A stretch of DNA of 63,934 bases, counting the filler, from an uncultured Methanosarcinales archaeon (lineage in GTDB: Archaea > Nanobdellota > Nanobdellia > Woesearchaeales > CAZKBD01), in assembly GCA_964550945.1 (NCBI GenBank). It is 13 parts of 13 records of this genome, joined end to end, with 100 filler letters (N's around TTAATTAATTAA, not from the genome) between each part and the next. Parts side by side here need not be neighbours in the genome. Positions count along the whole stretch, not along the records: positions 10,879 to 16,095 come from CAZKBD010000108.1; 12 more parts are not named here. One strand, given 5' to 3'. Shown here one piece after another: positions 5,528 through 16,285 of this stretch. Within the stretch, counting starts at the first letter, position 1. Every line of letters starts with the position of its first letter. The position numbers were made by a program, and so were the translations under genes. The notes beneath the pieces were generated by a model. The model had not been told where the DNA came from, ran no database searches, and saw nothing but the letters and a program-made list of their open reading frames with translations.

Positions 5528-6909
5528 GAACAGAGACTGCCCTTATCTATATCGCTAAAGAATTAGCTAAACTAGATTTCAAGGTAACAGTGTTTAATAA
5601 TTGCGACAAGCCAGGAACCTATAATAATGTTGAATATAAAAAATTCGAAGAGTTTGACCCTAAAGTAGAGACTGACATTTTCATTGCCGTCAGATTCTTA
5701 GACATATTCAACAACAGCATAAACTCGAAGATAAGCCTATTCTGGACAGAAGATGACTATAACCAGCCTTTCCTGAAAGCTTTGATGGAAAAAAGCATCC
5801 TTTCAAAAATAGGCAAAATAATCACTGTTAGCAATTTCCAAACAAACAACATCTCTAATTATTTTAAAATACCCAAAGAAAAATTCTTTACAACAAGAAA
5901 CGGAGTTGATATTAATGGCTTTGAGTTAAGTGTTAATAAAAATAAGAATAAATTAATTTATACAAGCGCCCCTTTCCGCGGCTTGGATATTCTTTTAGAC
6001 ATACTCCATTTAATAAAAAAAGAGATTCCAAACGCTGAATTGCATATCTTCAGCAGCATGAAAACCTACACCCTCTCTGAAGAAGAAGACAAGAAATCAT
6101 ACAAGAATATATACAAAAAGGCCAATCAGCCAGGCGTTTTTTTAAGAGGAAGCATAACACAAAAAGAGCTGGCCAATGAATTGCTGAGCTCTTACCTTTT
6201 TGTTTACCCCAATAAATTTCCAGAAACATCATGCATCGCTGCTATTGAAGCTCAGGCAGCAGGCGTTCCAATTGTCACATCAAAATTAGGGGCTTTAACA
6301 GAAACAGTTGAGCAGGGCATATTGATTGAAGGAAATCCTTATTCTGAAGAATACAAAACTAAATTTGTAAAAACTGTCATTGATCTGTTAAAAGATGAAG
6401 ATGAGTGGAAAAGATTGAGTGAAATAGGAAAAAAGAGTATTAAAGAATTATATGATTGGGAGATGATCGCAAAAGAATGGAAAGAAGAGTTTTCAGGATT
6501 ATTAAAGAACGCCAAAAAAGAGAAGAATAATTTTGAAATAGGCAAGGATTTCTTTGACAAAAAAGAATTCAATAAAGCTAAAGAATATTTTGAGAGGTAT
6601 CTAAAAGAAACCCCTAATGACAGCTCAACCCATTTCTATCTGGCTGTGGCATTTGATGAACAAGGCGATAATGAAAAAGCGATCTTCCACTATAAAAAAG
6701 CATTAGAGCTGAATCCAAGAGCTGAAAACGCCTATAACAATCTGGCTCTGGCCTACATAAAAATCAAAGACTACAGGAATGCCTATGGGGTTTTAATGAA
6801 AGCTGTAAAATTAGGCCACCCTAAAAAGAAAGATATGGCAGAGCTTGCAAAGCAGATAAAAGAGAAAATAGATGGCAAAATCAGCTATTCTTTCTCTGTT
6901 AACCCATAA
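5528..6909 (+). CDS. GT4-family glycosyltransferase with C-terminal TPR repeats (5' partial)
   Basis: Frame open from the contig start (TETALIYIAKEL), YTSAPFRGLDILL, ETSCIAAIEAQAAGVP (EX7E), and three TPR-like repeats. Confidence 0.88.
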
Positions 6910-7930
6910 AAAGATCTTTAAACTCCCTGTATCTTCCTAAAACCTCTTCAGGAGAAGCTGTTCCTGTTCCTTTCTTTGTTACTGTAACAGATGAAACAAG
7001 AACACCTAATTGTGCTGCCTCTACTCTACCCGCACCAAGGCACATTGTAGGAACTGCTCCTGCTGTAAAGCTATCTCCTGCACCAGTTATATCAATTGCT
7101 CTAACTGGCAATCCATGTATATGAGAATATCCAGATCCATAAAAAAGCAATGCGCCTTCATTTCCAACTGTTAAAAAAACAGGCGTGTGAGTTCTTTCAT
7201 ATAGTTCAGATCCGCTTGTCTGAGTAACATTCCTATCTATAATATCATGTCTATCATATCTGCCCTGCTCGATTGCATTCGCAGCCTCGCATTCGTTTGG
7301 CTTGATCATAACATGCTCAAATTTTCCAATCCTCACTCTTGAGTCTGCAAAAAATATTTTGTCTCCATATTGAGCTGCTAATACAGCAATTTCAGCCCTA
7401 ACTTTGTCTGTAATAACCCCATAATTTCTTTCAACTACCTGGTCTGAGATTATTACTCCATCAACTTGAGGAACTAATGCCCTAAGATTAGCGATAACTC
7501 CCTCTTCTAAACCTGCAGGCAAAGGCTGTCTTGGCATTGTGTCTTCTCTAAATACCTCCTTGCCATCCTCAAACAACTTGTGATATGTCCATGTTTTAAA
7601 ACCATTTGAAACAACAGCATAACTTGTATCCACCCTTGTAGCTTCTAATCCTTTTCTAAGCACAGCGCCATTTCCATCATCACCAATCACAGTTACTACA
7701 TATATATTCCCCACTCCTAAAGCGCTAAGGTTATTTGTAATTGTCCCAGCCACTCCAGGTGTAGATTCTCTTCTGTCTATGATATACACTGGCTCTCCTT
7801 GGTTCTCCTCAGATTCCCTTCTCTCGCTTGAATTAGTAAATACCAGATCATCAAGAAAAATATCACCAACAACAGCAACTCTAACATCCTTGAATTTATC
7901 CAATAATTGCCTTAATATTTCTTCATTCAC
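6899..7930 (-). CDS. rfaE: RfaE/HldA-like PfkB-family sugar (heptose-7-phosphate) kinase
   Basis: VAVVGDIFLD, KPNECEA, DITGAGDSF and VTVTKKGT motifs; same contig as gmhA. Confidence 0.8.
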   Translation of the reverse strand: MNEEILRQLLDKFKDVRVAVVGDIFLDDLVFTNSSERRESEENQGEPVYIIDRRESTPGVAGTITNNLSALGVGNIYVVTVIGDDGNGAVLRKGLEATRVDTSYAVVSNGFKTWTYHKLFEDGKEVFREDTMPRQPLPAGLEEGVIANLRALVPQVDGVIISDQVVERNYGVITDKVRAEIAVLAAQYGDKIFFADSRVRIGKFEHVMIKPNECEAANAIEQGRYDRHDIIDRNVTQTSGSELYERTHTPVFLTVGNEGALLFYGSGYSHIHGLPVRAIDITGAGDSFTAGAVPTMCLGAGRVEAAQLGVLVSSVTVTKKGTGTASPEEVLGRYREFKDLFMG

Positions 7931-9012
7931 AAATCTCGCCTCATTCTTTCTTCAATAGCATGATAAAGATTTTGGACAAACGCCCTGTTATCCATTTGAA
8001 GGTATTCAAATTGGCCGCCCATTCTGCTAAATGTTTTATGATACCTCAAATAGTAATCTGATTGCGTTTTTCCAGGTTCGCCATTTTGCCAATTGTGTGT
8101 CATTGGCTGGATATCGCAAACTACAATGAGGTTATTATCAGGAGCAGCTCCTTGTTGCAAAGCTAGATTTCTAGCCATTGAGTGAGCCTTCTCATAGATC
8201 ATTGGCCCCATGACTGCTGATCCAATACAGATGAACACCTCCCCCTCAAGTTTCTCTTTAGAATGTGTAAATGTTAAGAAATCTCTGCCTGACGCCTTTC
8301 CAATAGCTGCAAAATCACAATATTGGCTTGTATGAGTAATATCATTGCCAATTCCAACACCCACGCTCAAAGGGATTCTATATCTAAATGCCGCAGCAAG
8401 CAGGCTAAACTCCGGATGTTGGTAATCAAGCCTAACTTCTCTGCCAAGAACTCCTTCTGTGTTCAACAAATCTCCTAACTCGCCTAGCTCTCCTAATTTC
8501 CTTTCAAGAACCACCCTATTAGGCATAAAAAATTTACCTGTTTCAATAAACTCCCCTAATGATTCTCCATAACCCTTGCCTTGAGCTGCGCCAGCAAGAA
8601 CCGCTAGATTGATATATCTGCCAGTCTCTGTCCACAAGCCAAACTGGCCTTCTTTAACATATCGTTCAACACTTTCGCATGTTGCTCCTTGATATGACAT
8701 TTCCCAATCATGGATTGAGCCTGCACCATTTGTTCCTAATTGGGTTATAAACCCATCCTGCATCATCCTGATCAACGCAGGAGAATTTCCATTCCTAAAA
8801 CAATGAGCTCCATAAGCAATAATAACTGCGCTGCCATTCTTTTTTGCTTCTATAATCCTATCAGCAAGCATACCGATTGTTCCTTTATGCTCTTCTGATA
8901 TATCAGGCGGCTGAGAACTAGGATCAATCATTACAGAAACATCAGTTTCATTTACCCTCTCGTTTAAAGGCCGTGTAGTTAACCTTGACCTGTCAAATAT
9001 AGGATATGGCAT
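7927..9012 (-). CDS. Uncharacterised protein with deoxyhypusine-synthase-like NAD/FAD-binding fold
   Basis: YGAH, TNGAGSIHDWE, GIGNDITH and IGSAVMGP motifs; ATGA overlap with the kinase gene. Start at 9012 (MPYPIFDRS) preferred. Confidence 0.6.
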   Translation of the reverse strand: MPYPIFDRSRLTTRPLNERVNETDVSVMIDPSSQPPDISEEHKGTIGMLADRIIEAKKNGSAVIIAYGAHCFRNGNSPALIRMMQDGFITQLGTNGAGSIHDWEMSYQGATCESVERYVKEGQFGLWTETGRYINLAVLAGAAQGKGYGESLGEFIETGKFFMPNRVVLERKLGELGELGDLLNTEGVLGREVRLDYQHPEFSLLAAAFRYRIPLSVGVGIGNDITHTSQYCDFAAIGKASGRDFLTFTHSKEKLEGEVFICIGSAVMGPMIYEKAHSMARNLALQQGAAPDNNLIVVCDIQPMTHNWQNGEPGKTQSDYYLRYHKTFSRMGGQFEYLQMDNRAFVQNLYHAIEERMRRDL

Positions 9013-9131
9013 TATTAATCCCCCATTTAGAGGTGAGTGTTGTTTCATTTAAAAACATTTTGGTAAATGACTATTTTATCGTAGTGATAAAAACAAAAAA
9101 CATTTAAATTAAGGCCTACTCTGGCTAGAAA

Positions 9132-10043
9132 ATGCAAGAAATTCCATCGTATATCCATCCAACAATAGAAGGGACTGCTATTGAGATAGTTAATCAATTT
9201 ACGCCGCATTCTCGTGAACTAGGAGATCTCTTAGTAGGATTTGATGTAGACGGAACATTGACTCTTTTGAGAAAATTCTGGGCAGATTGGCAGCTTTCTA
9301 CAATTCATGCTTATGCTATAGCAGCCGGAATGCCAGACAAGATAGCAGGCAAAGATATATTAGATGTAATAAGAGAAAATGTTCAAATTCTAACCGGACA
9401 TCCCACTTTACGTCAATGTCAGTGGGCTTCTGAATGGATAGAACAGCACACAGGAACAAGGTATGATCCTTTTCAAATAAAAAGGGCATATACCGGGATG
9501 TTAGAACGTGCTGTTGATGAACGAAAAGCAGAGATTGCAAGAACAGGAGATGCTTCACCTTTTTTAGTTCCTTATGTGCATGAATATTTGGGAGAATGGA
9601 ATGCTAGAGGAGCTTATTTTTTTGCAGCTAGCGGAACAGACAGAGATCCAGTAATAGATGACTTAAAAGTTGTTGGATTATACCCTCAATTTCTTCAGTT
9701 TGTTGAAGGTGCAGATGATAAAAATCCAAAATGGGGCAAAGAAGATTCATTCAGGAAAGCTTTAGACGAAAAGCTAGGCGGCAGGGATGGCAGACCTGGA
9801 ACATTAGTTGTAGGCGGAGATTCCTGGATAGAGCAGGAGCTTGCCAATAACATTGCCGGAGATTATCCTAATGTTAATGTCATAAAAGTAGGTGTTGTTG
9901 CTGAACTACCAAATTCATTTGGAATTCTATCTGCTGGATTCAATAGAAGCAGGATTGAAGAACACAATCCCCATATACTTGTTCCTGACTACAGAGACTA
10001 CAAAACCCTAGTGCAGCTTATTATGGGAGAAAGAAATTTATAA
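9132..10043 (+). CDS. HAD-superfamily phosphatase (possible GmhB-role)
   Basis: FDVDGTL motif I, ASGT motif II, K and GGDS motifs; lies inside the heptose cluster. Confidence 0.75.
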   Translation: MQEIPSYIHPTIEGTAIEIVNQFTPHSRELGDLLVGFDVDGTLTLLRKFWADWQLSTIHAYAIAAGMPDKIAGKDILDVIRENVQILTGHPTLRQCQWASEWIEQHTGTRYDPFQIKRAYTGMLERAVDERKAEIARTGDASPFLVPYVHEYLGEWNARGAYFFAASGTDRDPVIDDLKVVGLYPQFLQFVEGADDKNPKWGKEDSFRKALDEKLGGRDGRPGTLVVGGDSWIEQELANNIAGDYPNVNVIKVGVVAELPNSFGILSAGFNRSRIEEHNPHILVPDYRDYKTLVQLIMGERNL

Positions 10044-10054
10044 GAATCTAATGA

Positions 10055-10678
10055 TTAAATATTGGGTCCTTCTCTTGATATTCTTTCATGAAGATAACTC
10101 ACTAAAAGATGGTCTAGTACCATATGCACATCCTCTACAGGACCGTATTCTCCTCTAGCTGTCGGGACCAATATTGCCTGCTTAGCAAGACTAACCAATT
10201 TACCGCCTTCAAAACCAACCCAAGCAACTGTTCTTGCGTCTCTGGTATTAGCATATTCAATCGCTTTCACAATATTAGGAGAGTTACCGCTTGCGCTTAT
10301 GCCAGTTACCACATCACCTGGCTCCAAAAGAGGCTCAAGCTGCCTCATAAAAGTAAACTCATAACCATCATCATTGCCATATGCAGTCAAAGCAGCAGGG
10401 TCTGTCAGAGGAATTACCCTTAATCTCCTTTTTCCTTCCACACCAGTTCCCTTGGCAAAATCATTGACGCAATGAGATGCTGTTGCAAAACTCCCTCCAT
10501 TGCCCATAAAATAGAAATGTCTGTTTTCAGTATAAGCTTGCCACATTGTATCTGCTACTGCCTCTACACTTTTAGGATCGACTTTGTCAAATATGCCTTT
10601 CAGATGTGAAAAATAAGCCTGTGCAAATGCAGCAGATGATGGATCAGATTCATACATTTCACTAAAAACGCTTTCCAT
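10055..10678 (-). CDS. gmhA: SIS-domain phosphoheptose isomerase
   Basis: GNGGSFATASH, TAYGNDDGY, ISASGNSPNI and VEDVH motifs. Confidence 0.88.
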   Translation of the reverse strand: MESVFSEMYESDPSSAAFAQAYFSHLKGIFDKVDPKSVEAVADTMWQAYTENRHFYFMGNGGSFATASHCVNDFAKGTGVEGKRRLRVIPLTDPAALTAYGNDDGYEFTFMRQLEPLLEPGDVVTGISASGNSPNIVKAIEYANTRDARTVAWVGFEGGKLVSLAKQAILVPTARGEYGPVEDVHMVLDHLLVSYLHERISREGPNI

Positions 10679-10904
10679 AGAATAAGGGGAATTGTTGATT
10701 ATTTAAATATGTTTCCACCCAATTGGATGTGGGACAGGATTAGCTAATTTCTATGCTGTTTCTTATAGAAGTTGAATANNNNNNNNNNNNNNNNNNNNNN
10801 NNNNNNNNNNNNNNNNNNNNNNTTAATTAATTAANNNNNNNNNNNNNNNNNNNNNNNNNNNNNNNNNNNNNNNNNNNNATAAAACGAAATATTGGCATCG
10901 CCTA

Positions 10905-10950
10905 TCCCAACCGCAGCAAGCTGCGGGGTATTAAACCCATAACGGGAATA
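10905..10950. repeat. REP-like / IS200-IS605-type hairpin near a contig end
   Basis: Perfect CCGCAGC-AA-GCTGCGG at 10911-10926 followed by GGTATTAAACCC; GC-rich in AT-rich DNA, about 30 bp from the contig break. Confidence 0.5.
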
Positions 10951-10970
10951 AAGACTTTATATGTGACCCC

Positions 10971-11402
10971 ATGGATATTTCTACTACTGCTCAATGTTTT
11001 ATTAAAACCTATATAGTAAATGGTAGACTCTATGCTCCTCGACAAGAATGCAAAAAATATCGCTGCGGTTATTGCAGGTACGACCTTAATTTGAAGTCAA
11101 GTGAATTTTCAAAAAACTTTAGTGGTTTCTTTTTTTCCCCAATACAAATAAAAAAATTTAGTTTAATCATCATACCTGATAACCCCCTTAACGTTTCAGA
11201 AAAAGATATGATTCCTTTTGATCCAATAGGCATAAGTACATTTAGCCCTTATGATTTATGTATGCTTGAAACAAACAATAATTTCGAACAATGTAAACGC
11301 CTTCCTATAGAATCAATTATTAATAAACCAATAACAGTTAGTATCTCTCCCATAAACAAATCGTTAGGTAATCTAAGTATAAGTATAACCCAAGTGATAT
11401 AG
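10971..11402 (+). CDS. Hypothetical Cys-containing protein
   Basis: 143-aa ORF with CxxxxCxxC and a TATA-like TTTATAT upstream; no family recognised. Confidence 0.45.
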   Translation: MDISTTAQCFIKTYIVNGRLYAPRQECKKYRCGYCRYDLNLKSSEFSKNFSGFFFSPIQIKKFSLIIIPDNPLNVSEKDMIPFDPIGISTFSPYDLCMLETNNNFEQCKRLPIESIINKPITVSISPINKSLGNLSISITQVI

Positions 11403-11614
11403 TTTAGTGAAATAATCAAAAATTGTCACCTTATTAACCTATTTCTTTATTGCACTTCGTGCTTTAAGACGCTGACTTGAGAACGTATCGGTTGGAGAAA
11501 AACTCCGCTCACCATCAAAGGTTCGCTACGTATAACAGCCTTTAGGACATAAGCTAATTGCAATTGATTATCTTGGCCAAAAGTTATTTATACCTTAAAG
11601 GACATATTCACTTT

Positions 11615-12061
11615 ATGTGCTTAAAAAAAGTTAAGTCGTTCCTCAGAACATATAGGGGAAGATTGAAGGATTTTTATTTAAGTGTCATTGCAGGCTTATT
11701 TTCAGGATTATGTATGGGGATTTTTTTTAGTCTAACAATAGATATATCATTTAATAGGTGGATAGATCCAACAAAGTTAGGAGAATTTTTCGCAACAGTT
11801 GTAGATGTTCTGTTGATATTGTTTCTTCTTTTGACTTTTTATGTTGTTGGACAATTGATAGTAAAATTCTTACTTAGAGATAAAAAGAGGCATCTTAGTT
11901 TTCACCTAAATTTTATCGCAGGCATATACAGTTCTACAATGACATTTTTATTAGTACTTTATTACGATGCACCAATGATGCGCAATACTATTACAAGTAT
12001 TGGTGTTGTTCTATTTTTTGTACTTGCTTATTTTACTGTAAAAAGAAAGTGGCCAAAATAA
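11615..12061 (+). CDS. Hypothetical 4-TM membrane protein
   Basis: Four hydrophobic segments; ATG 11615 lies about 23 nt after TATTTATA. Confidence 0.7.
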   Translation: MCLKKVKSFLRTYRGRLKDFYLSVIAGLFSGLCMGIFFSLTIDISFNRWIDPTKLGEFFATVVDVLLILFLLLTFYVVGQLIVKFLLRDKKRHLSFHLNFIAGIYSSTMTFLLVLYYDAPMMRNTITSIGVVLFFVLAYFTVKRKWPK

Positions 12062-12119
12062 TCAACTTCTCCTTCGCTAAAGCTCAGTTGCCCACACTGC
12101 GCTCTCATTCTTGCTCATC

Positions 12120-12728
12120 CTACACTTCACTAAAAAATTTTACAGCAAACTCACAAAACTGAATGATTGTTTCTTTGTCCAAATCAAATTCTTTCCTATT
12201 TCCAAGATAGTTCATTGATTTTGACGTCACTTTCTTTCCTTCTTTTAATTCTTTATACGTGATGCATTTAATATGATTTTTTGAGACAACAATAAAATAT
12301 GCGTTTTCATAAGGGTAATTAATCAATGATCTATCATTAATGTCAAATTCTCCGCTTTTTCTAAATTTAACCTCTATAAAATACACGTCCTTTCGTATAG
12401 GATGTTGAACTACAAAATCTGGCATTCTTCTTATCGTATCTGCAACCTCACTTTTAACATCTTGAAGAAGTTTTGTAATTGCAGGGACTGTATTTTCCAT
12501 TCCATATCTGAAAACATTATATCCTAAAGATAAAAATAATTCTTCAATTAATGTTTCAGCAATTCTGCCTTTTATCATACCTTCCTTATATCTATTTTCC
12601 TTTTTTGTTAATCCTTCATTAGAATTATTTTGATGCGGTCTACATAAGGGTTTACCAAAATTTTTTAAAGAAAAATCATGCTCAGCTGAAGTAATCTCCT
12701 TCTTACATATTGTACAGTAATAGTCCAT
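12120..12728 (-). CDS. Zn-finger + PD-(D/E)XK (Hjc/restriction-fold) nuclease
   Basis: N-terminal CxxC...CxxH; KGRIAE...MPDFVV...FIEVKFR catalytic pattern. Confidence 0.75.
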   Translation of the reverse strand: MDYYCTICKKEITSAEHDFSLKNFGKPLCRPHQNNSNEGLTKKENRYKEGMIKGRIAETLIEELFLSLGYNVFRYGMENTVPAITKLLQDVKSEVADTIRRMPDFVVQHPIRKDVYFIEVKFRKSGEFDINDRSLINYPYENAYFIVVSKNHIKCITYKELKEGKKVTSKSMNYLGNRKEFDLDKETIIQFCEFAVKFFSEV

Positions 12729-12897
12729 ATTACCACCCCAGTAAACAATATATCTTAAAAGTTATTTAAATTATACTATTTTGCGTGTGCCCTTACGAAA
12801 TTGAGATCAACCCTAATTATGAGAAACATGTGCTTTTTCTTTTGATAGAGAAACAGCTGATATTTGTGTTGGAGCTACTCTTGCACGTAATGCAGCA

Positions 12898-13212
12898 TCA
12901 ATTCCCAAGTTCCAGCAAAATATGCTTCTTATCAGGCACAGAAATATAAAGCTCCTCACCCTTTTTAAGATTAAGGCTTCTCACAACATGGCTGTTAAAA
13001 TAGATGCCTAACCGCTCTTGAGATAATTTGACTATTTTCTGTTTTATCTTCAATGGGGTTTCTCTCAGTTCTTGGACCACTTTTTGAGAAGATAGCGGTT
13101 CAAATTCAAAATAGTCACATGTTGGGCACTGATAACTAACCGCTTTACTTGTAGCCCCATGTACTTTAACCTCTACCTTTTTTAAATTTGAATTACATCT
13201 CGGGCAGTTCAT
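12898..13212 (-). CDS. Putative antitoxin: Zn ribbon + AbrB/SpoVT-like domain
   Basis: CPRC...CPTC, then KIVKLSQERLGIYFNSHVVRSLNLKKGEELYISV (AbrB-like); 2 bp downstream of a small toxin-like ORF. Confidence 0.65.
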   Translation of the reverse strand: MNCPRCNSNLKKVEVKVHGATSKAVSYQCPTCDYFEFEPLSSQKVVQELRETPLKIKQKIVKLSQERLGIYFNSHVVRSLNLKKGEELYISVPDKKHILLELGN

Positions 13213-13214
13213 TT

Positions 13215-13430
13215 TTAATCACCTTGCTTCTTTGCATTAATCACGTACAAAATATGGTTTTTGATCTCAAACAAGATGTAATAGCCATTTTTTTCAATCT
13301 CAAATTTATCGTCTTTCTTTCGTGGATTTTTAGTACTGAATATGATTTCTACAACCTTATCCCAAGGAACATCTTCTTCATGTTCTTCAAGATAATGTTC
13401 GGTCGGTTCTATTTCGGTAAAATAAACCAT
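13215..13430 (-). CDS. Putative small RelE/BrnT-like toxin
   Basis: 71 aa; TEHY...VPWDKVVEII...YYILF...YVINAK pattern; paired with a DNA-binding partner gene. Confidence 0.55.
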   Translation of the reverse strand: MVYFTEIEPTEHYLEEHEEDVPWDKVVEIIFSTKNPRKKDDKFEIEKNGYYILFEIKNHILYVINAKKQGD

Positions 13431-13441
13431 TATATATCTCC

Positions 13442-13476
13442 TACTACATTAGTGTAGTATAAACTACTATATAAAA
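13442..13476 (-). promoter_or_regulatory. TA promoter with palindromic operator
   Basis: Perfect TACTACA-TTAG-TGTAGTA at 13442-13459, between the start codon and a minus-strand TTTATATA box. Confidence 0.6.
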
Positions 13477-13600
13477 CTTTCGTAAAACTCATTTACCCGA
13501 TTAGGTTTAAGCCCCACAATACAGACACCCGTAAGATATAGTCGGCTATACAGAATTGATTAAAAGTAAGGATGTTAAGTCCGTAATGAATCTCCCAAAT

Positions 13601-14503
13601 TCAGCCCAGCATAACAACCAAAAAGAATACTAAATAGATTAAAGGCACTGCGATAAATATTGAATACTCTGTCCTTCTATGTACTTTCTCAGCAAGCTCT
13701 GTCTTTTTTAGCTCCACTAATTCCAGAAGTATCACATCAATGATAACTGCAGCAAGAATGACAAAATAAGTGAGAATCATGAATTTATCTGCAATAGTCA
13801 AATAACCAACAGGAGGGATTTGGTTTGAGATTGAGATATGGAACATTACTGCTGCAATAAGGCCTGAAGTTGCCACAGTAAGCCTAGTAGTTATCTTATC
13901 TGGGTCCATTACAAAGCTGAACATCAAGATGAGTATGATAAATATAACCGGCAGGAAGGTTTTCATAAAGGAATTGATTGGTATCCTTGATATATCAACT
14001 GTAAATATATATTGAGAGTATACCTCATCATAGATTTTATAGTTATGTTCTAGGGTTTTTGCTTCCCAACCATCAATATTCCATCCTGCAAAGGCTATTG
14101 AGTCATCAATCCCGCTTTCAGATTCTAGAGGTATGTAAGCAAGCTCATCAACTACCTTTTCTTTATCCTCTATGATGATTTGCATCTTTTGTTTGTCAAA
14201 AGGAAAATTTTTTAAGTCAACTGGGCTGTTGAGGTTTGCCTGAATCCTATAAAATTTCTCAGTTGGAGTGTTGGTTATTTTATCCACGCTTGCAGCCCTG
14301 CCATTCATAAACTCGAAATTTTCAGCCGAGCAATTGCTATTGCATTTCATTGATAAATAAAAATCAGCTGTAAAAGAGCCTGTTGCAACATCAAACTTTC
14401 CAAGATTTAGGATATACAACCCTACTTCAACATCTTCCGGCTTAGCATTTGCTGGAAATGCCAATATCAAAGCAATAATAAGGAGCATTAATATTTTCTT
14501 CAT
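13601..14503 (-). CDS. Prokaryotic pentameric ligand-gated ion channel (GLIC/ELIC-like)
   Basis: Signal peptide, VEVGLYI...FTADFYL, LKNFPFDKQ Pro-loop, GW, YS...ISR, M1 FLP, M2 RLTVATSGLIAAVMFHI, M2-M3 PPVGYLT, four TM helices. Confidence 0.9.
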   Translation of the reverse strand: MKKILMLLIIALILAFPANAKPEDVEVGLYILNLGKFDVATGSFTADFYLSMKCNSNCSAENFEFMNGRAASVDKITNTPTEKFYRIQANLNSPVDLKNFPFDKQKMQIIIEDKEKVVDELAYIPLESESGIDDSIAFAGWNIDGWEAKTLEHNYKIYDEVYSQYIFTVDISRIPINSFMKTFLPVIFIILILMFSFVMDPDKITTRLTVATSGLIAAVMFHISISNQIPPVGYLTIADKFMILTYFVILAAVIIDVILLELVELKKTELAEKVHRRTEYSIFIAVPLIYLVFFLVVMLG

Positions 14504-14603
14504 ATTTCTAGCAAAAATTAGGCCATATATTTAAAATTTACTTTTTGGAGGCCCAGTAGCCCAGTAGAAATCCTAGGCGCCTGTGCCCCTGTTGATTTAC
14601 CTC

Positions 14604-14876
14604 CTAATAAGACCTGATAATTATCAAAACAGTCAATAAGCCAATCATAAAAGTCAATAGATGGGAAAAAACCAGCTCAAACAAAGGAACAAAAAAATTA
14701 AAAGCAATTAATGACAAAGCTACAAACAATAAAATACCAATGCCCATTGAGGAGCAGTAGATACCTGCTACTTCTGCAGACGGTTTCTTAATCTTGTAAT
14801 TTTTAAAGGAGTAATGATAGGCAACTGTAAAGCAAACCAATCCAATCACATCGATAAATGCCAGCAGTGTGTCCAT
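14604..14876 (-). CDS. Small 3-TM membrane protein
   Basis: 90 aa from ATG 14876, 1 nt after the upstream stop; hydrophobic. Confidence 0.6.
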   Translation of the reverse strand: MDTLLAFIDVIGLVCFTVAYHYSFKNYKIKKPSAEVAGIYCSSMGIGILLFVALSLIAFNFFVPLFELVFSHLLTFMIGLLTVLIIIRSY

Positions 14877-14877
14877 T

Positions 14878-15129
14878 TTAACTAAGCGGCTTATTTTTAA
14901 ACGCGTCAATTGCAAAAAAAGACGCTGATAATGCTAAAAAACCATGTTGTATCACGATTAAAGCGTAAGTCTGCCCTATAAACCCAAAAAGCACGCTGAA
15001 AAACATAAATAACAGCGCCAAAAGTATAGACCTTATATCATAATACTTGTAAAACCCTTTTTTCAAAAAATATAATATCAGAGTAATTAATAATATCAAG
15101 GGTATCATAAGATTGTTGTTTATTATCAT
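14878..15129 (-). CDS. Small 3-TM membrane protein
   Basis: 83 aa, ATGA overlap with the upstream RHH-fusion gene; hydrophobic. Confidence 0.6.
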   Translation of the reverse strand: MIINNNLMIPLILLITLILYFLKKGFYKYYDIRSILLALLFMFFSVLFGFIGQTYALIVIQHGFLALSASFFAIDAFKNKPLS

Positions 15130-15884
15130 TTTTCACCAATATGAAAATACTCGCCATGGGTAAAATAGCCAACAAGCTGTTTTATCCTAGCTATCCTTGG
15201 CAATAAATCCCTTTCAATGGATATAGTGTCCTTGCTGAACAGCTCAAAGACTTCTGGCTTGAAGATATAGATTCCTGCATTGACTATATGCGTCTCTGAT
15301 TTTTTTGGCTTTTCCTGAAAATCAACAACTAAATCACCATCTAAAACCGCGGCCCCATACTCAGAAGGCTTGGCCCTAGACATTAAGCCGATAGCTGCCA
15401 ATTTATCTGAATCAATGTGCTTTTTGACCATATTATCCAATTCAAAATCATTATAGGTATCGCCGCTCATAACCACAAAACTAGCTTTCAATAGATCCCT
15501 GATAGAAAACAGGGCTTTTGCATTACCGCTAACCTCTTTTTCAATAACCTTGACCTCAATTTTTGCGTCTGAAATCTCATTAAGCAACAGATGGATATTC
15601 CCTGTGTGATGGGTAACAATATATGCCTTGCTTATGCCATTATTCTGAAAAAGAGCTATCTGCTGGTTTAGCAAAGAACGGCCTTTAATTTTTTTAAGAG
15701 ATAATAATTGGTGCTCCCCTTTTATCAACAAAACAGCTATATTAATGCTTGCCTCTTTCAGCCCTTTCTTAAGATAAAACTCAATTGCCTGGCTTCTCGA
15801 CCTTATAACAGAGCCATCAACCTTGCTGTCCACAAGGCTAAGCAGGGATTGATCGAGAGAAATAGCTATTTTTGGCTTTTTCAT
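15126..15884 (-). CDS. Ribbon-helix-helix (CopG/NikR-like) domain fused to a degenerate sugar-phosphate nucleotidyltransferase domain
   Basis: KIAISLDQSLLSLVD...RSRSQAIEFYL (RHH). VMSGD, YG, FQEKP, VNAGIYIF and SIERD (NTP_transferase) are present, but the GGxGTRL...PK loop is replaced by IKGEHQLLSL. Confidence 0.85.
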   Translation of the reverse strand: MKKPKIAISLDQSLLSLVDSKVDGSVIRSRSQAIEFYLKKGLKEASINIAVLLIKGEHQLLSLKKIKGRSLLNQQIALFQNNGISKAYIVTHHTGNIHLLLNEISDAKIEVKVIEKEVSGNAKALFSIRDLLKASFVVMSGDTYNDFELDNMVKKHIDSDKLAAIGLMSRAKPSEYGAAVLDGDLVVDFQEKPKKSETHIVNAGIYIFKPEVFELFSKDTISIERDLLPRIARIKQLVGYFTHGEYFHIGEK

Positions 15885-15890
15885 GATAAG

Positions 15891-15909
15891 AGTATGAAAT
15901 TGTCATACT
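15891..15909. promoter_or_regulatory. Operator 1: AGTATGA-AATTG-TCATACT
   Basis: Perfect 7-bp inverted repeat between the RHH gene's TTTATAAA box and its ATG. Confidence 0.75.
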
Positions 15910-15986
15910 TTATAAAGTTTTCTATACATGTTTAGGTGATATAACAGAAAACCAAAAGATTTATATATTGCCTGTTTTTACCTATG

Positions 15987-16003
15987 GTATGAATAGTTCA
16001 TAC
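15987..16003. promoter_or_regulatory. Operator 2: GTATGAA-TAG-TTCATAC
   Basis: Perfect inverted repeat with the same GTATGA-N5-TCATAC geometry, between the TTTATATA box (about 15960) and the GGTGA SD of the divergent gene. Confidence 0.75.
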
Positions 16004-16016
16004 TAAAGGTGAGCAA

Positions 16017-16095
16017 ATGATAAAAGAGATTATCCAGGAAAGCATTGATGTAAAAGAAAAGGTTAAAGAGCTTGATCTAGAAATAGAAAAAGCAG
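16017..16095 (+). CDS. 5' fragment of a probable second phosphoheptose isomerase (SIS) gene
   Basis: MIKEIIQESIDVKEKVKELDLEIEKA matches the typical GmhA N-terminal helix; AAGGTGA SD; cut by the linker; absent from the ORF track. Confidence 0.55.
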
Positions 16096-16195: not shown

Positions 16196-16285
16196 ATTGC
16201 CTACTTCTACCAGTGGCTTAGGGATTTCTTCAGTATATTCACTTAATCTTGTCCCCTTGCCCCCGCATAAGATTACAACTTGCAT
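16196..16285 (-). CDS. 5' fragment of a sugar-1-phosphate nucleotidyltransferase (RfbF-like)
   Basis: [30 protein letters not shown] has an intact signature loop; cut by the linker; absent from the ORF track. Confidence 0.8.

Follow-up and report, generated by a model that had tools for sequence, protein, structure and literature searches.

What is a sugar-nucleotide-synthesizing fold doing behind a DNA-binding domain when its catalytic loop is gone? This question is raised by a gene found in a 63,934-nucleotide stretch (the window) of the genome of an uncultured archaeon (GenBank assembly GCA_964550945.1, here G000; 1,970,944 bases [1.97 Mb], assembly 92% complete). The window is made of short contigs chained by N runs, and the gene lies at the end of one of them, C108 (window positions 10879-16095). 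It encodes a 252-residue protein that combines an N-terminal ribbon-helix-helix (RHH) head with a catalytically eroded sugar-phosphate nucleotidyltransferase fold, and it is separated by a 132-base-pair (bp) spacer (15885-16016) from the divergently transcribed gmhA. The data point to a real, well-supported regulator-operator-operon unit of the enzyme-derived one-component type, and the protein is likely to be a ligand-sensing repressor of an ADP-heptose operon and of its own gene, with DNA binding, the ligand, and the direction of the response being predictions.

An RHH head on an eroded nucleotidyltransferase

The RHH assignment of the regulator is based on family-level matches and not on the single-sequence score: RHH_1 against the regulator alone gives 16 bits (E = 0.012, below the 20.5 cut-off), and 61 of 136 family members match it at E ≤ 0.01. 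A profile of 33 N-terminal segments retrieved Escherichia coli NikR (1q5v, residues 2-43) from the PDB as the first match, at E = 1.5e-6, with further matches to the Rv0298 antitoxin and CopG, i.e., other RHH proteins. As a single sequence, the head matched designed repeat proteins alone in the PDB, which is uninformative. Its strand shows the alternating polar/hydrophobic pattern of RHH domains (K5-I6-A7-I8-S9-L10), and strand residues K5, A7, and S9, as well as the start of helix B (R28-S29-R30-S31), are near invariant in 120 homologues (here and below, the best 120 of 689 matches). The AlphaFold model, built on a 136-sequence alignment with a predicted local distance difference test (pLDDT) score of 96, recovers both the RHH head, with helices at residues 12-20 and 30-44, and the nucleotidyltransferase fold; it replaced an earlier model that used 36 close sequences (pLDDT 68). 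The homodimer prediction for the regulator, 0.09 with the mark at 0.42, was counted neither for nor against.

The rest of the protein matches PF00483 (E = 4e-23, residues 67-218), leaving profile positions 1-28 unmatched. Residues 46-252 of the model superimpose on GMPPB (7d72_K) with a Z score of 25.8, the root mean square deviation being 2.0 over 205 aligned residues, as befits a GT-A-like fold, and related active PF00483 transferases match it at Z scores of 22 to 26. As the original prediction had it, the sugar-side motifs SGD, EKP, and NAGIY are present and the catalytic loop is gone: the GGxGxR position reads KGEHQ, modelled as the start of a helix (56-62). The GGxGxR loop is found in none of the 120 homologues, and 115 of them carry [KR]G[EDG]xQ at this place.

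According to the available part of PMC9168903, the active transferase VTC1 binds pyrophosphate (PPi) through Gly9, Thr12, Arg13, and Lys23 and uses Asp111 and Asp219 as catalytic aspartates. When aligned with VTC1, the 120 homologues are variable at the PPi-loop Lys, and all of them retain the first catalytic Asp (D142) and have His in place of the second, Asp219 (H248). The C-terminal helix of active transferases is absent from the regulator. The positions that form the GDP-mannose site of VTC1 (80, Gly85, Asp111, Tyr145-Gly146, Glu162, Asn173, and Glu195) correspond to E115, G120, D142, Y176-G177, E191, N202, and E224, each conserved in 117 to 120 of the 120 homologues. The sugar-side YG, EK (E191-K192), N, and E residues are found in all 120, as are the polar pocket residues D142, Y144, N145, Y176, E191, K192, N202, E224, and H248, and the nucleoside-side loop (E115, G120, N121, and A122) is retained in 117 to 120. 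Because the loop and Asp219 are lost while the pocket is conserved at this level, the parts needed for chemistry are gone and those that hold the product are under strong constraint. On this evidence, the C-terminal domain would have lost the synthesis of nucleoside diphosphate (NDP) sugars and retained a product-holding pocket.

In the databases, homologues are labelled mannose-1-phosphate guanylyltransferase, and the intact fold and sugar pocket could belong to an active, atypical nucleotidyltransferase, e.g., one that acts on heptose-1-phosphate. Such activity is very improbable, given that all 120 homologues lack the PPi/triphosphate loop with its Lys as well as the second Asp, that every NCBIfam enzyme model scores far below its cut-off on the regulator, and that the operon already has its own HldC.

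Operators and the divergent heptose operon

The contig ends within the divergent gene. Over its final 55 bases (window 16041-16095), C108 is identical to the first 55 bases of contig C133, a unique overlap of this kind in the assembly, and C133 encodes the rest of GmhA, followed by HldD, HldA, GmhB, and an HldC that is cut by the contig end. The joined contigs thus give the order gmhA-hldD-hldA-gmhB-hldC, a set for ADP-heptose synthesis. GmhA (TIGR00441, 223 bits; cut-off, 209.45), HldD (TIGR02197, 276.4 bits; cut-off, 274.6), and HldA (TIGR02198, 406.3 bits; cut-off, 345) pass their models, GmhB falls 1.3 bits short (148.3 versus 149.6), and the incomplete HldC scores 73 bits, with the full HldC of a relative (L112) reaching 192 versus 181.5. 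The overlap and the NCBIfam matches identify the divergent unit as an ADP-heptose operon and its first gene, which had been predicted to be a gmhA-like sugar isomerase, as gmhA itself. The enzyme fragment with an intact loop at 16196-16285, originally set beside the regulator, is the start of a separate contig, C109; its adjacency to the locus is unsupported, and it was rejected as a neighbor.

The spacer contains two copies of GTATGA-N5-TCATAC, each downstream of a TATA box as expected for a repressor target (Table 1). Both sites are where they had been predicted, but they are not perfect palindromes: they are hyphenated, with arms of 7 bp that flank 5 and 3 unpaired bases. The exact motif occurs twice in the 1,970,944 bases of G000, both times in this spacer (genome-wide expectation, 0.07). 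The two sites rank as the top two matches in a genome-wide box-pair scan of G000, which found no other convincing target of this regulator; weaker matches precede other small RHH genes. With one mismatch allowed, shuffled sequences contain a mean of 0.07 matches, and none of 100 reached the 4 observed. A Sigma-70 scan stayed at chance level and concerned the wrong promoter type. With the usual archaeal promoter geometry, operator 1 would take up the whole stretch from the TATA box to a leaderless start, whose counterpart for gmhA would be covered by operator 2.

Table 1. Features of the regulator locus, in window coordinates
Feature	Position	Strand	Basis or remark
Regulator gene, 252 aa: RHH head and catalytically eroded sugar-phosphate nucleotidyltransferase fold	15126..15884	-	Open reading frame (ORF), profiles, model
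NikR-like RHH domain, residues 1-45	15750..15884	-	NikR profile match, RHH_1 in family, conservation in 120 homologues, model
Nucleotidyltransferase-like (GT-A) domain, residues 46-252	15129..15749	-	GMPPB structure match, VTC1 alignments, conservation
KGEHQ segment, residues 55-59, in place of the glycine-rich GGxGxR triphosphate loop	15708..15722	-	Homologue alignment, model
Operator 1 (candidate), on the side of the regulator; two boxes of 7 bp with a 10-bp period	15892..15908	.	Flanked by TATA box and start codon; distance to ATG, 7 bases
TATA-like box, regulator promoter	15909..15916	-	Abuts operator 1 (gap 0)
TATA-like box, gmhA promoter	15960..15967	+	19 bases upstream of operator 2
Operator 2 (candidate), heptose-operon side, GTATGAA-N3-TTCATAC	15987..16003	.	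Over inferred transcription start
gmhA 5' end (sedoheptulose-7-phosphate isomerase), cut by contig end	16017..16095	+	Remainder on contig C133 of G000
83-aa membrane ORF, coupled to regulator, probably cotranscribed	14878..15129	-	No Pfam match; one relative (L065) among 180 loci
90-aa membrane ORF, probably cotranscribed	14604..14876	-	No Pfam match; L065 only; Atlas best score 0.87, uninformative

Conservation of this arrangement was assessed in 92 related loci (8 from GTDB genomes, 4 further loci from genomes of the class, and the best 80 of 238 metagenome loci; 25 other GTDB-genome matches were distant enzymes and were excluded). These form 73 clusters at 90% protein identity, 64 of which extend to the divergent heptose gene; one of the 73, L007 (genome G305), carries no claim by itself. 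Close homologues that bear taxon names come from Woesearchaeota/Nanoarchaeota, which makes a DPANN archaeon the very probable host. The strict palindrome lies between -30 and +150 of the first heptose gene in 54 of the 64 dereplicated loci. Among the other 10 loci, 4 keep the palindrome at the divergent promoter behind which a gene is inserted, in 5 the box pairs are variants, and in the last one, L036, a pair is found on the regulator side only. A TATA-like 8-mer is found 3 to 19 bases upstream of the operator in all 54 relatives. Because the operator always lies downstream of this box and at variable gaps, occlusion fits better than activation, and an activator role was rejected.

On the regulator side, 50 of the 73 clusters have a 26- to 27-bp array of three 7-bp boxes with a 10-bp period, whose outer halves span N15 in 19 of the 50. 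A site of 7 bp is what one RHH dimer reads, and these arrays accordingly suggest a quasi-palindromic 7-bp box as the binding unit, the palindrome being a pair of these units on the same helical face. Where genes have been inserted before the regulator (L002, L004, L118, L140, and L143), the two operators stay together. A glucokinase-like gene, together with gnd and pgl, intervenes between the regulator-side operator and the regulator in L004 (2386-5004) and in L140.

In the class as a whole, 73 of the 301 genomes encode some relative of the regulator and 38 encode an hldA-type kinase, and a regulator of this clade is found beside heptose genes only in G000, G202, and G113. As a control, 20 of the other 35 kinase genomes were taken (those with the strongest kinase matches; one same-genus genome was excluded), covering 237 kb. 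No strong intergenic box pair (at least 17 bits) was found in these 20 heptose loci, which lack the regulator, and the single pair detected falls within a reading frame; because of kinship, none of these comparisons counts as a formal test. In G206, a homologue with 33% identity faces genes for an hddA-like kinase, a dehydratase, and a gmhA-like protein (all below cut-offs) and has the same box pairs, so the regulator appears to follow heptose across two branches of the pathway.

Several observations speak against reading the unit as a dedicated heptose repressor. The relatives are kin, mostly >59% identical, and their synteny is therefore not independent evidence; some operon starts may have escaped the 20 control stretches. 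Of the 301 class genomes, 2 contain the exact palindrome, G000 and, at a coding site, G158; a reversed control pattern is as frequent, and G202 and G113 carry variant sites only. In G225, the clade member lies before a gmd-like gene and lacks a box pair. The residue equivalent to E115 reads guanine N1 in VTC1 and is not obviously suited to adenine. Finally, similar boxes precede stand-alone small RHH genes on C28, C45, C65, and C96, as well as an intact-loop paralogue on C15; since like boxes stand before other RHH genes of G000, the box cannot by itself name its binder, and cross-binding by other local RHH proteins is possible.

This last point would allow another RHH protein, either the C15 paralogue or one of the stand-alone ones, to be the main binder of the palindromes, with the adjacent gene being only autoregulated. 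Related boxes upstream of the other RHH genes and of 12 of 33 distant RHH-nucleotidyltransferase genes are consistent with such a role, as is the presence of further paralogues in all three of G000, G202, and G113. It is nonetheless improbable, considering that none of the 20 heptose loci without an adjacent regulator has a strong intergenic pair, even though three of those genomes (G014, G190, and G271) hold distant paralogues, and that the spacer sites are the two best matches in all of G000. The small stand-alone RHH-like genes (C28:7543, C45:4762, C65:9714, and C96:180) have GTA-N-TAC boxes with 9- to 11-bp spacing just upstream, likely reflecting autoregulation and a general recognition code.

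The composition of the heptose operon varies among the relatives. Its first gene is either gmhA (29 clusters) or one for a 120-residue cupin (35 clusters), never both (n = 64; e.g., L003 and L140 versus L008 and L120). Five cupin genomes contain no gmhA above cut-off, and one has a 117-bit SIS protein; this suggests that a cupin isomerase takes the place of GmhA in cupin-type operons. At the second position stands hldD (30 clusters) or a gene for a deoxyhypusine-synthase-like protein of the GSU2086 family (21 clusters; e.g., L144:4364-5266), again never both, and all four combinations of first and second genes occur. In Geobacter, GSU2086 is located between hldE and gmhA (PMC5585712, as far as its available text goes), and the family could possibly represent a non-orthologous heptose epimerase.

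Proposed mechanism and the nature of the ligand

Comparative data agree with the repressor-operator-gmhA unit of the original prediction on three counts: family-wide loop loss with a retained pocket, an operator at the position of a repressor site, and gmhA at the head of a full ADP-heptose operon. Woesearchaeota-type archaea would use the protein as a one-component transcriptional repressor. The RHH heads would dimerize, as they do in the RHH family, with each dimer reading one 7-bp quasi-palindromic box and two or three dimers occupying adjacent boxes at a spacing of 10 bp. The first array would lie over the start of the gmhA-hldD-hldA-gmhB-hldC operon and the second between the TATA box and the start codon of the regulator; occupancy just downstream of the TATA boxes would block initiation both ways, i.e., of the heptose operon and of the regulator transcript. 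The dead domain would bind the NDP-heptose end product, probably ADP-heptose, as a co-repressor, closing a feedback loop on the supply of a surface-glycan precursor. A ligand that tightens DNA binding, as opposed to releasing it, is what we infer for this pocket.

Among the candidate ligands, an NDP-heptose is modestly favored, a heptose-phosphate intermediate is considerably less probable, and some other molecule, or none, is less probable again. Naming the base by homology was tried and rejected, as the best matches, GDP-mannose enzymes, are only ∼25% identical and HddC is lower, which is too distant. According to the available text of PMC11573728, the STTR5 motif of promiscuous HldC enzymes is tied to the formation of CDP- and UDP-heptose; this motif is found in none of 32 related HldC proteins, so these two sugar nucleotides are not favored. 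The genome may also make GDP-heptose, because a 685-codon frame in G000 (C22:18878-20932), by eye a transferase-CBS-GHMP kinase fusion, looks HddC/HddA-like.

A pathway intermediate (sedoheptulose-7-phosphate, heptose-7-phosphate, heptose-1,7-bisphosphate, or heptose-1-phosphate) could instead act as an inducer that releases the repressor from DNA. The same type of regulator faces both ADP-branch and GDP-branch-like heptose genes, whose shared chemistry is that of the early heptose phosphates; conservation is highest at the sugar-side motifs; and the gnd, pgl, and glucokinase-like genes lie behind the regulator-side operator in two loci. An inducer of this kind is still unlikely, as a bare sugar phosphate has no need for the nucleoside-side loop, which is kept in 117 to 120 of the 120 homologues. 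Less likely yet is repression that is constitutive or set by the protein level, with the dead domain serving as an oligomerization scaffold or as a dock for a pathway enzyme and binding no small molecule. Loop erosion is common in the wider family, where 23 of the 174 RHH-fused tree sequences keep the loop, and GMPPA-like non-catalytic paralogues act via protein contacts (PMC11228364, in the part available). Nine polar pocket residues that are invariant in all 120 homologues are, in turn, hard to explain without a ligand, and feedback by an NDP-heptose co-repressor is the reading retained here.

Known parallels, the wider family, and implications

Enzyme-derived one-component regulators, in which a fold taken from an enzyme serves to sense a metabolite next to a DNA-binding domain, include NrtR, Bacillus subtilis PurR, NadR, BirA, PutA (which also uses RHH), and the ROK repressors. 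To our knowledge, none of these has an RHH joined to a sugar-nucleotidyltransferase fold, and none governs the synthesis of NDP-heptose. Literature searches, whose scope fell short of most subscription papers and of supplements where the architecture could be tabulated, found no published description of an RHH-nucleotidyltransferase fusion, in line with the original statement that no characterized regulator of this kind was known.

The closest parallels come from two sides. NikR, the nickel-responsive RHH repressor (E. coli 1q5v; Pyrococcus horikoshii 2bj1), has a homologous head, the best PDB profile match, and the same layout of an RHH head followed by a C-terminal ligand domain, which in the regulator would bind a ligand. 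Its operator is GTATGA-N16-TCATAC (PMC7055735, in the portion available), so the half-sites GTATGA/TCATAC are common to both, as had been noted. In contrast, the C-terminal domain of NikR binds nickel and that of the regulator is a PF00483 GT-A fold; the boxes of the regulator are 10 bp apart (N5) or form three-box N15 arrays instead of N16, which has no copy in G000; and its targets are heptose genes. GMPPA and KONJAC, non-catalytic GDP-mannose pyrophosphorylase paralogues, share the fold of the regulator (7d72 and 8yre are among the top structure matches). The available part of PMC11228364 describes such a dead paralogue as binding the NDP-sugar product and providing feedback; the pocket of the regulator suggests product binding as well. 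Unlike the regulator, which ends at residue 252 with its GT-A domain, these proteins carry a beta-helix and act allosterically on the enzyme; the regulator bears an RHH head, and its effect would be on transcription. Active PF00483 transferases (GMPPB/VTC1, RmlA, HddC, and the CugP-like 8x7s) have the same fold and the same sugar-side and base-side residues, whereas the regulator lacks their GGxGxR loop, loop Lys, and C-terminal helix and has His for the second Asp. The regulator belongs to neither the NikR nor the GMPPA family, combining a NikR-like layout and half-site with what would be a GMPPA-like use of a dead paralogue as a product sensor.

A profile search of 1.84 billion representatives returned 111 proteins at E ≤ 1e-30; among the matches listed, nearly all are RHH-fused, with loops at every stage of decay. 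A 178-sequence tree places the heptose clade within a group of 56, none with an intact loop (support, 0.947). Deep branches are weak (supports of 0.34 to 0.83) and the outgroups are not monophyletic; no order of events is therefore claimed. The intact-loop C15 paralogue (C15:13164-14039, L064) is divergent from pfk and further glycolysis-like genes and has two boxes after its TATA box, between two TATA boxes; it is a candidate bifunctional enzyme-repressor. Among distant members, 12 of 33 have a box pair of at least 8 bits with 10-bp spacing within 70 bases of the start, by a matrix built from the heptose clade only; spacings of 9, 11, and 12 bp are seen in 1, 5, and 1 of the 33. For comparison, 3 of 432 TATA-bearing upstream regions of G000 have such a pair, one of them being that of the regulator gene itself. 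Neighbors of the distant members, judged by eye, include phosphohexomutases (one confirmed), epimerases, and flippases. Two RHH-nucleotidyltransferase genes stand in tandem upstream of a phosphohexomutase-like gene in L049, L059, L060, L061, and L063; one copy is eroded and the other intact, and both have box pairs.

These observations raise the prospect, with a chance that we place a little short of even, that the heptose repressor is one branch of an unrecognized, DPANN-wide family of RHH-nucleotidyltransferase transcription factors that are mislabelled as enzymes. Its members would have in common a 7-bp box that recurs every 10 bp and a location at operons for NDP-sugars and surface glycans (heptose, phosphohexomutase, epimerases, flippases, and pfk). 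They would range from intact-loop proteins, possibly bifunctional enzyme-repressors, to pure sensors, and in these reduced archaea they would be the chief regulators that sense NDP-sugars.

The immediate surroundings of the regulator in G000 are less conserved. The two small membrane ORFs downstream are coupled to it as predicted (an ATGA overlap with the regulator and a 1-base gap between the ORFs), but they occur beside a regulator in only one other locus (L065) among 180; they were rejected as conserved members of the regulon and appear to be lineage-specific passengers. Past a 100-bp gap downstream of the unit, a 300-residue frame (13601-14503, minus strand) has weak PF02931/PF02932 ligand-gated ion-channel matches, below cut-off, and two adjacent small ORFs (12898-13430, minus strand), one of 71 residues and one of 104 residues with a zinc ribbon and an AbrB/MazE-like part (weak matches), have a toxin-antitoxin-like look. 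Contig C107 (window 5528-10778) carries a second heptose-like cluster with a GSU2086-family gene (7927-9048), genes for a PfkB-type kinase and a HAD protein (9132-10043), and a gene for a divergent GmhA-like SIS protein (10055-10678); no operator match was found in this cluster.

All five genes of the ADP-heptose pathway are present on C108 and C133, and a GT9 heptosyltransferase-like gene, the usual convergent neighbor, converges on the regulator in 59 of the 92 loci, often followed by DUF2304, GT2, and AglB. Unlike the usual setting of this pathway, the host is an archaeon without lipopolysaccharide, and in the relatives the cluster stands beside GT2 and the oligosaccharyltransferase AglB. 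Because the operon adjoins GT9 and AglB in relatives, the data point to heptosylated surface glycans. The available text of PMC11573728 gives the reason why archaea make manno-heptose as unknown; here archaeal ADP-heptose is tied to a probably controlled operon. In L004 and L140, the inserted gnd, pgl, and glucokinase-like genes would bring the pentose-phosphate supply under the same switch.

The locus offers a testable regulator, operator, and target in archaea with almost no known regulation, and the regulator is a candidate biosensor part for ADP-heptose. If the proposed mechanism is true, it would represent a transcription-level NDP-sugar sensor derived from a nucleotidyltransferase fold, whereas enzymes are the targets of those dead paralogues that are known for this fold. 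Hundreds of proteins currently annotated as transferases would then need new names, and the DPANN-wide family, if real, would provide a natural series of an enzyme turning into a sensor.

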